From an uncultured Bacilli bacterium (GTDB taxonomy: Bacteria; Bacillota_I; Bacilli_A; RF39; UBA660): 62,654 bases of DNA. Positions 1,923-46,058 of the stretch are shown here, piece by piece. The notes under the pieces are model-generated. The model worked only from the letters and a program-made list of their open reading frames with translations. It was not told where the DNA came from and made no database searches. Position numbers and translations under genes: made by a program. The DNA lies in assembly GCA_944358735.1 (NCBI GenBank), contig CALVRT010000081.1, forward strand, positions 1 to 62,654, in the 5' to 3' direction. The stretch's first letter is position 1. Each line of letters begins with the position of its first letter.

Positions 1923-3056
1923 TTACCCTAGCCCATTAAATACCATATAAAGGATAAAAACGGTATATATTAAATACAATATCCAGCCATTGATTTTTTC
2001 AAAACTGGTTGATTTATATTTAACACCAACAGCCATTGTAGCTAAAATACCACCGATAAGCCCACCAATATGAGCCCAAATATCAATACCAGAAATAAAG
2101 AAGCCAATTAATAAGTTAATAATAACAAGTGGTATTATTTGCGATTTAATTACACTATCTAAATATACCCGGTAATGATAACCAAAGTATATAAGTGACC
2201 CCATTAAACCAAAGATAGCGCCACTAGCCCCAACACTAAAGCCTGAACTCATAAAGATTGAAAGTACGCTACCGGCTAAAGCAGAAAGAAGATAAACAGC
2301 TAAATACTTGCCTTTTCCTAAAAAACTTTCAAGCTGCATACCGATAATATAAAGGGCATACATATTAAATATTAAATGAACTATGTTGGCGTGTAAAAAA
2401 GTTCCAGTAATTAAACGATAAAATTCGCCATGAGTAACCAAATAACGATTTACTGCCAGTTCAGGAAGCAAATTATAAAACATTGAAATAATAAACATAA
2501 TCACATTAATAGCAATTAAAATATATGTAATAATCGGTTTTTTCATACTAAATACATCTTCGCTCATTCGGGCATCTCCTTCATTTTTATCGTTAATATC
2601 TTTAGTTAATTTAAGAAAAAGTTCAAGACCCTTTTCTTTAAAATTCATATTGTTATTAATATCTGGAAATGATGTTGTAATAAACTGATATTTATTTAAA
2701 TCATCTTCTGTCTTAACATTAGCAATCGCAATATTATCTTCATCAAAATCTTCTAAATGAACGTTATCACCTAAATTAACAAAAATACTTAAAGTAGTCA
2801 TTTTAAATGATAAAGTTCTTTTTTTGATGTTTTTCATTAAAACTTTAGTTTTAAATAAATCGCTTTTAAATTGTTCATTATTATGAATATAGTTAGATAC
2901 GATTCTAACGATTTTATAATCTTCTTGTAAATTCTCGAGCCATATTTCATTTTGAACGCCGTGAATAATAATAGGATTATATCCTTTAAGCGATATAAAA
3001 TAATGTAATAATTTCATAACTAGTTCTTCATTTTCGGCTATAGTTATCTGATTCAT
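1923..3056 (-). CDS. rhomboid-family intramembrane serine protease with an N-terminal cytosolic domain (GluP/YqgP-like)
   Basis: HANIVHLIFNMYALY, GASGAIFGLMG (catalytic Ser) and AHIGGLIGG (catalytic His) lie in a multi-TM C-terminal half. Confidence 0.85.
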   Translation of the reverse strand: MNQITIAENEELVMKLLHYFISLKGYNPIIIHGVQNEIWLENLQEDYKIVRIVSNYIHNNEQFKSDLFKTKVLMKNIKKRTLSFKMTTLSIFVNLGDNVHLEDFDEDNIAIANVKTEDDLNKYQFITTSFPDINNNMNFKEKGLELFLKLTKDINDKNEGDARMSEDVFSMKKPIITYILIAINVIMFIISMFYNLLPELAVNRYLVTHGEFYRLITGTFLHANIVHLIFNMYALYIIGMQLESFLGKGKYLAVYLLSALAGSVLSIFMSSGFSVGASGAIFGLMGSLIYFGYHYRVYLDSVIKSQIIPLVIINLLIGFFISGIDIWAHIGGLIGGILATMAVGVKYKSTSFEKINGWILYLIYTVFILYMVFNGLG

Positions 3057-16186: not shown

Positions 16187-16355
16187 AAAAAAATGTCTAA
16201 AAGTGCGCCTTTTAACGATAAAACCGGGCTCACCAGGTGGGCATCACATTATATATTTTAGGATTCTTATAATATAAGCCTTCAACACCATATATAAATT
16301 AGATTCCCGAATCGTTATTTGTAGGTTTTTCATAATCGGCTAACATCTTTTAGAC
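16187..16355 (-). ncRNA. stand-alone structured small RNA of about 169 nt; candidate 6S-like RNA
   Basis: It has its own consensus promoter. The 5' GUCUAAAAG pairs with the 3' CUUUUAGAC, which is directly followed by U7. There is no ORF or RBS. Extended imperfect end-to-end pairing occurs (GCC/GGC, CGAU/AUCG, AAAACC/GGUUUU). Confidence 0.55.
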
Positions 16356-16361
16356 AATTAA

Positions 16362-23988: not shown

Positions 23989-24221
23989 ATTTATTCCTTT
24001 CTCACAAAATTAAAACCTATGCTTGTATATGCATAGGTTCTATAGTTTAGACTATAAAATTATTTCCGTCCGCAGATACAAGCATCACAAACAGTACTTG
24101 CATCTTTGACTTTCATCTAGCAAGTACTTACTGACAGCGTCTGCGGTTGTTCATTTGAAATAATTTCATAATATCTTCCTTTCTTGGTCTATATAATACA
24201 CAAAATATTTTCTTTTGTCAA
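23989..24221 (-). promoter_or_regulatory. promoter plus leader of about 200 nt with a leader ORF, antiterminator and terminator upstream of the M20/GNAT operon
   Basis: TTGACA (24221..24216), 17 nt, TATTAT (24198..24193). Long stem: CCGCAGA (24146..24140) pairs with TCTGCGG (24076..24070). Terminator: AACCTATGC (24039..24031) pairs with GCATAGGTT (24022..24014), followed by UUUUAAUUUU. Alternative 10-bp pairing: ATGCTTGTAT (24085..24076) with ATACAAGCAT (24028..24019). Confidence 0.6.
24128..24169 (-). CDS. 13-codon leader peptide MKLFQMNNRRRCQ with three consecutive Arg codons
   Basis: aaaggaagatattATG; codons CGC-AGA-CGC at 24145..24137 overlap the 5' arm of the long leader stem. Confidence 0.5.
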   Translation of the reverse strand: MKLFQMNNRRRCQ

Positions 24222-30783: not shown

Positions 30784-30890
30784 TTTAGTACCTCCTTTTA
30801 AATCTAAGACTCGCCATTAAGGTAGTTTAATACTTTTAAACCTTTTTTGTGCGGTTGTAGAGTTGAGGCTCTACACAATTAATGATTTTA
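30784..30890 (-). promoter_or_regulatory. rplU 5' leader with a conserved-looking hairpin (possible L21 leader)
   Basis: TGTAGAG-ttgagg-CTCTACA hairpin at 30856-30875, in the position where Firmicutes carry the L21 autoregulatory leader. I cannot verify the motif. Confidence 0.3.
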
Positions 30891-40964: not shown

Positions 40965-41908
40965 ATGAACAGAAGAAGATTAACAAGACGTTCAAGAAAA
41001 AAATAAGGAAAGTAATAGCAATTTCAGCTATTTGTTTGCTAGGTTTAATGACAGCTGGTTATGCGGCCATGCAAACTAATTTAAATATTAAAGCTAAAGG
41101 CAATGTATTACAAGGCGAAATTGATATAACTGATAACATCGTTGCTAATGGTGATGGACTGTATATTGACACTTACGAAGAAGGAAGATATGTCTATAAA
41201 GGAACAAATCCCAATAATTATATCGAATTTAATAACGAATTATGGCGTATTCTTGCCAAAGAGGCTGATGGAACATATAAAATAGTAAGAGATGAATTAT
41301 TACCAAACCAAGCTTGGCATACAGCAAAAAATTGTTCTACTGCATATAACACTACAATTAAAGACGGTAGCACTTATATAATTGAAAACATAACTTATTT
41401 AGCACCAGACATAGGTGCGGGCTGCATGGTTTGGACAGACCCCGCAACTTTAAATACATATTTAAATGGAGAATACTATAACAATTTAAATCAAACAGCA
41501 AAAAATAGTATCACATCCCACAGCTGGAAAATAGGAGGGTACAGCAATAATAACAGGAACGATTTAAGGAAAATAATTACCGATGAAGGCAGTAGTACTT
41601 GGAATGGTAATATTGGTTTAATAAATACTAGCGATTATTTAAGAGCTAATAGTGACATAATAAATTGTAATGCCAATAATGATTATTCAGTGTGTAAAAA
41701 TACAAATTGGCTATATAATAATAATGATTGGTGGACAATAAATACTTATTACTATTTTGGCATTACATATATAACATCTGATGGAGATATTACTTATACT
41801 GGTTCAGTAGTCACTAGTATTGCACCTCGCCCTACTCTCTATTTATCTTCTGATATTACTTTAACTGGAAAAGGTACTAAAGAAGAACCATATCATATAA
41901 AAAACTAA
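40965..41908 (+). CDS. secreted / membrane-anchored protein whose start and body are in different frames (A7 tract at 40997-41003)
   Basis: AGGAGG 7 nt before ATG 40965 gives MNRRRLTRRSRKK-TAA. The -1 frame continues IRKVIAISAICLLGLMTAGYAAMQTNLNIKAKGNV... to 41908. The track ORF (TTG 41036) begins inside the hydrophobic helix. Confidence 0.65.
40997..41003 (+). other. A AAA AAA slippery heptamer followed by a 0-frame TAA
   Basis: AGA AAA AAA TAA; a -1 shift reads AAA AAA ATA AGG. Confidence 0.8.
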
Positions 41909-45984: not shown

Positions 45985-46058
45985 GCCACAATAGTATAAT
46001 GGTATTACGAAGCAATGGTAATGCTTTAACGTAGGTCCGATTCCTACTTGTGGCACCA
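45985..46058 (+). tRNA. tRNA-Thr (anticodon GGU) with encoded CCA
   Basis: Acceptor stem GCCACAA/TTGTGGC, anticodon stem AAGCA/TGCTT, loop A-U-GGU-A-A, T stem GTAGG/CCTAC, discriminator A, CCA. G1:C72 and C2:G71 fit Thr identity. The T-loop reads TCCGATT, so C where U55 is near-universal. Confidence 0.8.

Follow-up and report, generated by a model that had tools for sequence, protein, structure and literature searches.

A conserved leader with consecutive arginine codons upstream of an M20-GNAT operon in uncultured Bacilli, a probable ribosome-mediated transcription attenuator

We analyzed a stretch of 62,654 nucleotides (nt) from an uncultured Bacilli bacterium of the GTDB lineage RF39; UBA660 (GenBank assembly GCA_944358735.1, contig CALVRT010000081.1, positions 1 to 62,654; the whole stretch is called the window below, and its G+C content is 28%). 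The minus strand of this DNA carries an operon of two genes, encoding an M20 metallohydrolase of the ArgE/DapE superfamily and a GNAT acetyltransferase, and a leader region at positions 23,989 to 24,221 precedes them. A preliminary description, made from the letters alone, had proposed that this leader holds a small open reading frame (ORF) with three consecutive Arg codons and controls the operon by attenuation. All leader features were read on the minus strand, and their positions are summarized in Table 1. The promoter given in that description, with its TTGACA and TATTAT boxes 17 nt apart, was confirmed with a near-consensus match, and a TTGACA-type promoter occupies the equivalent place in the orthologous loci, while promoter-like sites by themselves are not significant in the AT-rich DNA of the window (17.3 expected and 23 found). 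The purine-rich ribosome-binding site (RBS), the 13-codon ORF and the Arg codons CGC-AGA-CGC, lying on the 5′ arm of a long stem, are likewise present where they had been placed. Among the window genes CGC is the rarest Arg codon (1.5 per 1000), and the window leader uses it twice.

Table 1. Positions of the leader elements, the regulated genes and other annotated elements in the window
Feature	Coordinates	Strand	Evidence or remark
Sigma-70-type promoter: TTGACA (24221..24216), 17-nt spacer, TATTAT (24198..24193)	24193..24221	-	11/12 consensus positions matched
Purine-rich Shine-Dalgarno sequence of the leader ORF, GAAAGGAAG	24175..24183	-	5 nt before the ATG
Leader ORF, 13 codons plus stop (ATG..TAA), encoding MKLFQMNNRRRCQ	24128..24169	-	Sequence; orthologous ORFs with Arg runs
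Putative sensing codons CGC-AGA-CGC (Arg-Arg-Arg), overlapping segment A	24137..24145	-	Sequence
Segment A, CCGCAGA, pairs with D3′	24146..24140	-	Sequence; A:D3′ = -13.3 kcal/mol
Segment B, AGTACTTGC, starts at the last base of the stop codon, pairs with C	24120..24128	-	Minimum free energy fold, covariation
Segment C, GCAAGTACT, partner of B or alternatively of D	24093..24101	-	Alignments, RNAalifold
Antiterminator strand: D ATGCTTGTAT (24085..24076) and D3′ TCTGCGG (24076..24070); partners C, A or E′	24070..24085	-	Alignments, folds
Outer-stem 3′ strand GGAAATAATTT, pairs with the leader-ORF start GAAATTATTTC (24167..24157) in untranslated RNA	24057..24067	-	Minimum free energy fold
Intrinsic terminator: stem 24042..24011 (12 pairs; core AACCTATGC / GCATAGGTT) and T-tract to 24005	24005..24042	-	Terminator scan
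E′, ATACAAGCAT, inside the terminator, complementary to D over 10 base pairs	24028..24019	-	Sequence
First regulated gene, M20 metallohydrolase of the ArgE/DapE superfamily, 352 amino acids	22930..23988	-	NCBIfam, Pfam, PDB search
Second regulated gene, GNAT acetyltransferase, 213 amino acids	22284..22925	-	Pfam, AlphaFold and Foldseek
6S RNA	16190-16359	-	Rfam and ARAGORN searches
Ribosomal protein L21 leader	30797-30866	-	Rfam and ARAGORN searches
tRNA-Thr(GGT)	45985-46058	+	Rfam and ARAGORN searches

The minimum free energy (MFE) fold of positions 23989..24192 reached -56.2 kcal/mol against a mean of -34.7 kcal/mol for shuffled sequences (z = -5.74; 0 of 200 shuffles were as stable), and it includes the long stem, the inner helix and the terminator. 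The two arms of the long stem (segments A and D3′), the two strands of the inner helix (B and C) and the complementarity of 10 base pairs (bp) between D and E′ agree with the preliminary description. The terminator hairpin with its T-tract, which had been drawn across 24039..24005, was recovered by the terminator scan with a slightly longer stem (Table 1). Its distance from the M20 gene had been overestimated: the T-tract ends about 5 nt, and not about 20 nt, before the M20 RBS (AAAGGA, 24000..23995), and 17 nt before the M20 ATG (23988). E′ spans the top of the terminator 5′ arm, the loop and the first bases of the 3′ arm. When the energies of the alternative structures were compared, as the preliminary description had suggested, the window hairpins were predicted at -10.9 (B:C), -11.3 (C:D) and -15.1 kcal/mol (terminator), the last of which compares with -17.9 kcal/mol for the duplex of D plus D3′ with E′. 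The outer-stem pairing is retained with compensatory changes in the closest relatives. No Rfam family was placed on the leader at gathering score in the window or in 20 loci, and a permissive Rfam search of the leader (E up to 10) returned chance-level matches only, with no T-box features or match.

Orthologous loci were gathered by a genome scan, a metagenome scan and exact-protein look-ups, and a locus was included when its M20 protein was at least 44% identical and enough upstream sequence was present. The genome scan with the window M20 protein gave one locus, from 'Bacillales bacterium UBA3789', and the remaining loci came from the metagenome scan and the look-ups; the related proteins carry the labels Bacilli bacterium or Candidatus Faecimonas. 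In uncultured low-GC Bacilli, M20 and GNAT genes stand together as a conserved pair, which we found at about 17 distinct loci with M20 identities of 44-79%. Metagenome-assembled genomes with this operon include GCA_022771205.1, GCA_948852825.1 and DFEZ01. The loci hold 23 leader units (21 tabulated units and 2 from loci with reversed gene order), and in all 23 an ORF with a Shine-Dalgarno (SD) sequence, an ATG and 2-4 consecutive Arg codons in frame stands ahead of a terminator. It had been argued beforehand that related leaders with conserved stems, but devoid of the ORF or its Arg codons, would speak against attenuation. No leader of this kind was encountered; instead, the same leader ORF with an Arg run, together with covarying stems, stands before the orthologous operons.

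Outside the Arg run, the residues of the peptide, the length of the ORF (11-23 codons) and the choice of Arg codons vary. The leader peptides are MKLFLVNNRRRCS (locus L082), MKLFQTIINNRRRFS (L085), MKLFQTNNRRRLS (L086), MKLLQINNRRRCR (L087), MKLFLQNNRRRYR (L091), MNSFIMNNRRRRYTLHLKKR (L089), MNLFMTNIIRRRRYRRHLRKR (L003 and L094), MKKISMTIRRRRFD and MKIFVMNNRRRRLMVHLRKR (L002), MSNIVNTIARRRRTHTLVK and MENILIIRRRLLR (L009), MVKYSMNIRRRF (L011), MKHYSINLRRRTRRRLGMK (L016), and MKNIIVLIRRRRY and MKNLMRREVRFLVLRYLVQDY (L001). Arg accounts for 93 of 349 leader codons (27%) and Lys for 6.6%, compared with 3.0% and 9.9%, respectively, in the window genes. Although AGA and CGN codons replace one another, Arg is retained, which speaks for a constraint on the amino acid and not on the RNA word. 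Every one of the 21 tabulated Arg runs mixes AGA with CGN, and none is drawn from a single family; this mix may sample both tRNA-Arg isoacceptor families, or it may merely reflect the pairing of CGNAGA with UCUNCG in D3′.

At two loci (L028 and L095) the gene order is GNAT then M20, and there the leader (encoding MKYFIMRRRYS and MQYYIERRRYK, respectively) precedes the GNAT gene. We counted this shift of the leader to the front of the reversed operon as a sign of its specificity for the operon. A signature scan for an SD sequence, a short ORF with an Arg run and a terminator, run over 92 loci (864 kb counting both strands), returned 24 matches, all directly upstream of an M20/GNAT operon and none elsewhere. 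The leader is absent from more distant M20 homologues (≤41% identity). Four loci carry two Arg-run leader units in tandem (L001:2702-2990, L002:2134-2480, L006:1318-1600 and L009:2188-2490). In the second tandem units (e.g., that encoding MKNLMRREVRFLVLRYLVQDY), the ORFs extend through B and C, and the related words are CTTGTACT, AGTACAAG, GTTGTAC and GTACAAC. As a further structural variant, two or three similar terminator hairpins follow the leader in succession in L028:1590-1680 and L095:3190-3290, and D3′ (ATCTGTATAG) pairs at these two loci with the terminator 5′ arm and not with the loop.

For the conservation of the helices, 18 leaders were aligned on hand-set anchors, and D:E′ in particular was counted on these anchors because MAFFT misaligns the terminator loops of distant leaders. 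Four related words are common to the leaders, namely B (xCTTGx), C (xCAAGx), D (GCTTGTAT) and E′ (ATACAAGC), the last of which lies inside the terminator. With the hand-set anchors, the 7-bp core of B:C was paired in 18/18 leaders at six of its seven positions and in 13/18 at the seventh, and it showed covariation (CG 12 / UA 6; AU 14 / GC 3; AU 7 / GC 6). C:D was paired over 11 bp in 17-18 of the 18 leaders. D:E′, the antiterminator pairing put forward in the preliminary description, is kept over 9 bp in 16-18/18 leaders, even where E′, instead of lying in the loop and 3′ arm, has moved to the 5′ arm and loop. On the MAFFT alignment, B:C was 88% paired with compensatory changes at 4/9 pairs, the six-pair core of A:D3′ was 89% paired with double changes at two pairs, and the terminator (16 leaders) was 99% paired with compensatory changes at 6/9 pairs. 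In these B:C, A:D3′ and terminator counts, the covariation score and the percentage paired both exceeded those of every shuffle, and the signal collapsed in slid registers. Leaders with weak A:D3′ pairing (e.g., L005 and L011) retain the ORF and the Arg run. The RNAalifold consensus, obtained independently, consists of C:D plus the terminator. These data indicated that B:C, C:D and D:E′ are three mutually exclusive conserved helices, and that the D:E′ antiterminator overlaps the terminator. The four-segment logic outlined in the preliminary description holds insofar as alternative helices are the basis of the proposed attenuation, and it has to be extended by the conserved 11-bp helix C:D, which makes the arrangement a multi-hairpin scheme like that of his.

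The distance of the Arg run from segment B was also measured. In 13/16 leaders the last Arg codon precedes the CTTG of B by 14-15 nt, and the stop codon falls either 5-8 nt before CTTG or 9-15 nt after it. We modelled a translating ribosome by masking a footprint from -15 to +12 around the A site, and we folded transcripts truncated at the point where E′ emerges. The predicted structure contained B:C and D:E′ in 16/16 leaders when the first Arg codon occupied the A site, and in 15/16 when the second did; with the ribosome at the stop codon, D paired with C in 9/16, the window leader included. In the window, a ribosome on the Arg codons gave B:C plus D:E′ in these folds, and a ribosome at the stop codon gave C:D and left the nascent terminator free. 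Untranslated RNA folded into a long rod (outer stem, A:D3′ and B:C) plus the terminator. The earlier proposal that a ribosome stalled at the Arg codons frees the antiterminator segment and permits read-through is thus borne out in the modelled folds. The accompanying statement, that stalling acts by preventing the long stem, covers part of what the folds predict: the antiterminator is freed, and stalling would do more than open the stem, as it leaves B free to hold C, which in turn releases D.

The following mechanism would be consistent with these results. Transcription would start at about 24186, and a ribosome would begin to translate the 13-codon leader. If Arg-tRNA is scarce, the ribosome would wait with one of the three Arg codons in its A site and with its front edge just short of B, so that B could pair with C; D would then be left free to pair with E′ as E′ emerges, and D:E′ would block the terminator and allow RNA polymerase to read into the M20 and GNAT genes. 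With ample Arg-tRNA, the ribosome would instead reach the stop codon that abuts B and cover B, C:D would pair, the terminator would form, and transcription would end at about 24005 with a leader RNA of about 180 nt. The long rod and terminator predicted for RNA that is not translated would represent an additional 'off' state. We therefore regard the leader as a probable (roughly 80%) ribosome-mediated, or leader-peptide, transcription attenuator that reads the supply of charged tRNA-Arg.

The enzymes encoded by the operon were compared with characterized families. The M20 protein stays below every NCBIfam equivalog cutoff: its best match is the ArgE/DapE subfamily model TIGR01910 (153 bits; cutoff, 217.6), and the ArgE model TIGR01892 gives 112.8 bits against 297.7; naming the gene argE is not supported. 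The closest solved structure in a PDB sequence search is 2rb7, an uncharacterised M20 protein. Residues H72, D97, E126, E127, D150 and H328 are invariant in 33 homologues and, by analogy with DapE and ArgE, are candidate metal-binding or catalytic ligands. For the GNAT protein, no NCBIfam model of N-acetylglutamate synthase matched, and its AlphaFold model (pLDDT, a per-residue confidence score, 88) retrieved generic GNATs as top Foldseek matches (arylalkylamine, N-alpha and phosphinothricin-type acetyltransferases); an assignment as argA, or N-acetylglutamate synthase, is likewise not supported, as neither sequence nor fold showed similarity specific to that enzyme. NCBIfam, Pfam, the PDB sequence search and AlphaFold with Foldseek gave no specific substrate for either enzyme. 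The family assignments of the preliminary description therefore stand, namely an M20 enzyme of the ArgE/DapE superfamily and a GNAT, whereas the Arg/ornithine-related N-acetyl chemistry that it considered plausible is not established.

In the collected loci, the GNAT gene is always adjacent to the M20 gene, and the unit recurs in quite different neighbourhoods, always with 300-600 nt of non-coding DNA in front. A related arrangement occurs at locus L018, in which a 40%-identical M20 paralogue (gene 961-2043) lies behind a T-box at 600-814 (RF00230; E = 8e-21; 91.8 bits, slightly below the gathering score of 93), whose specifier is apparently UGG (Trp); this paralogue is followed by a class I tRNA synthetase gene of the Trp/Tyr type (2047-3042), probably trpS. 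The M20 paralogue behind a Trp T-box provides a second, independent instance of control of this enzyme family by uncharged tRNA, and such repeated control agrees with a function in releasing amino acids from acylated or peptide forms. More tentatively, and with considerable doubt, the M20-GNAT pair may be a previously unrecognised arginine-supply module of common gut Bacilli, whose switch would sample both tRNA-Arg isoacceptor families. It could possibly act as a minimal ArgE/ArgA-like pair, or it could salvage arginine from a modified or conjugated form by an acetylation followed by a deacetylation. Another possible role is the detoxification of arginine antimetabolites or of arginyl-tRNA synthetase inhibitors, compounds that would likewise starve ribosomes reading Arg codons.

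Two further observations concern the surroundings of the operon. In several genomes the leader-M20-GNAT unit is inserted into, and splits, an otherwise conserved t6A gene cluster, where it lies between tsaE-tsaB-rimI and tsaD (L089:177-4816 and L093 / L094:2191-6925). At L082:5620-5760, a structured and relatively GC-rich stretch (including GGGAGGCGCTCTCCC) is located between a UbiA-family gene and the leader promoter; this stretch has no Rfam match, and both it and the UbiA-family gene are absent from the window.

Several points weigh against attenuation by the charged tRNA-Arg supply. When full-length RNAs were folded to equilibrium with the ribosome mask, most kept the terminator, and in the window a forced antiterminator was 13 kcal/mol worse. 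Thus, the switch has to be kinetic, and full-length equilibrium folding is unable to show it, which is why the transcripts had to be cut where E′ emerges; classical attenuators likewise decide kinetically. In the long-ORF variants, C:D was not obtained from truncated transcripts with a modelled ribosome at the stop codon. Because the leaders share ancestry, the counts given above are of non-independent events. The loop from arginine shortage to more arginine is not closed by the enzyme assignments. Observed are the sequence elements themselves, the conservation and covariation that they show, and the results of the masked folds; from these we infer termination, read-through, their dependence on arginine, a shortage of Arg-tRNA as the cause of stalling, and a role in arginine supply. 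Finally, Arg-Arg-Arg also fits the +X+ motif at which macrolide-bound ribosomes stall.

This last point raises the question of whether the leader senses ribosome-targeting antibiotics or translation stress, with a drug-bound ribosome arresting at the Arg run and inducing a stress or resistance operon, as for erm and hflXr. The run formally fits the R/K-X-R/K arrest motif, an Arg-Leu-Arg leader of the arrest type is known upstream of hflX in Bacillales (PMC8632094), some upstream ORFs respond both to antibiotics and to amino-acid starvation, for example that of whiB7 (bioRxiv 10.1101/2023.06.02.543512), and the GNAT protein is faintly similar to AAC(3)-I (E = 1e-5; 25 bits versus a cutoff of 200). 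However, Lys never occurs in the Arg run among the 23 leaders, though it is three times as common as Arg in the window genes; AAA is one mutation away from AGA, yet the run is always Arg. Moreover, runs that reach four Arg, with more Arg codons downstream, resemble amino-acid attenuators, and neither M20 nor GNAT falls into a known resistance family for ribosome-targeting drugs. We consider drug sensing improbable. The geometry of the leader shows that a ribosome held at the Arg run would give read-through, not why it is held, and this also suits a nascent arrest peptide responding, within the ribosomal tunnel, to free arginine or ornithine (compare TnaC, SpeFL and the fungal arginine attenuator peptide), in which case high arginine would switch on an operon with a catabolic or detoxifying role. 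Such a mechanism is very unlikely here: known arrest peptides are typically conserved along their length, whereas the present peptide shows little conservation of sequence or length outside the Arg run, and only 8-12 residues would have been synthesised at the stall point. The least probable of the three alternatives is an RNA-only element (a riboswitch or a protein-binding leader) in which the small ORF is incidental and the CGNAGA words are conserved only for their pairing with D3′. Although the A:D3′ pairing is real, with compensatory changes, and the leader fold is strongly structured, the SD sequence, the ATG, the frame and the identity of Arg persist in all 23 leaders across synonymous AGA/CGN changes, also where A:D3′ is weak; in addition, no Rfam family matches the leader, and it has no conserved unpaired pocket typical of a ligand-binding site. 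Attenuation through the charged tRNA-Arg supply is the reading that we prefer.

Viewed in this way, the leader can be compared with known attenuators. It has in common with the his operon attenuator (hisL; Salmonella and E. coli) and with the trp, leu, thr and phe leaders of Proteobacteria a short translated leader whose codons include a run for a single amino acid, an intrinsic terminator, and a series of hairpins that exclude one another, so that ribosome position determines whether antiterminator or terminator forms. Its chain of B:C, C:D, D:E′ and terminator resembles the multi-hairpin his attenuator scheme. Unlike his-type leaders, the present one would sense arginine and belongs to a low-GC Firmicute. 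It has no sequence or Rfam similarity to them, its antiterminator strand pairs with the terminator loop and upper stem and not with the whole 5′ arm, and the genes downstream of it are not a recognised biosynthetic operon. T-box leaders also report tRNA charging through a terminator/antiterminator choice, but they bind the tRNA directly, whereas the present leader would depend on a translating ribosome.

The speF leader of Salmonella reportedly combines Rho-dependent termination with an added ornithine-sensing peptide. Its ORF, orf34, contains consecutive Arg codons, and translation of orf34 reports arginine availability and alters mRNA conformation and premature termination (PMC6386406). It shares with the present element a leader ORF with consecutive Arg codons and differs in that this ORF is longer, belongs to an enterobacterium, precedes an ornithine decarboxylase gene and is unrelated in sequence. 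In Staphylococcus aureus, a Firmicute, the rbfL leader peptide has Arg codons at which ribosomes pause when arginine is limiting (PMC13009471). In contrast to the leader described here, rbfL acts on translation by occluding the downstream RBS, without a terminator switch; it uses two non-adjacent rare AGA/AGG codons, and stalling represses the downstream gene instead of inducing it. Further leader-peptide attenuators of Firmicutes and Mollicutes are the His leader of hisS/hisZ in bacilli (PMC2965389), the Leu-rich ilv leader of S. aureus (PMC5794164) and the Phe upstream ORF before aroF in Acholeplasma (PMC8632094). These three use the same mechanism in the same broad lineage, for other amino acids and other genes and with no sequence in common, and they demonstrate that T-boxes are not the sole route to sensing of tRNA charging in Firmicutes and Mollicutes. 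In the literature we found Arg-codon leaders only as the Salmonella speF leader and S. aureus rbfL, and no description of the present element. The leader would extend a known attenuation mechanism to arginine, in a bacterial group for which no earlier description was found.

A second ORF with Arg-Arg-Arg in the window (40965..41006 on the plus strand, MNRRRLTRRSRKK) was considered and rejected as a leader, as it encodes the charged N-terminal part of a signal peptide, truncated by a frameshift within a run of A: one extra A would join it to the hydrophobic core of the signal peptide and to an ORF of 290 amino acids at 41036..41908 (plus strand). Positions 40965-41908 (plus strand) are a secreted-protein gene split by this frameshift, the cause of which is an assembly error or slippage. 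The 6S RNA, the ribosomal protein L21 leader and the tRNA-Thr gene listed in Table 1 are ordinary features.

Leader-peptide attenuation is textbook knowledge for His, Trp, Leu, Thr, Phe and Ile/Val in Proteobacteria. In Firmicutes it is rare, and the control of arginine genes is usually ascribed to ArgR-type repressors. A conserved Arg-codon attenuator would carry the mechanism over to a further amino acid and into a gut lineage that is uncultured and poorly known. The small size of the element and the possibility of mutating each predicted helix separately make the model easy to test. The contig collection lists one orthologue, from Candidatus Faecimonas, in 640 blocks, and for this widespread M20-GNAT operon the leader offers a functional clue, namely that its activity would be wanted when charged tRNA-Arg is low.

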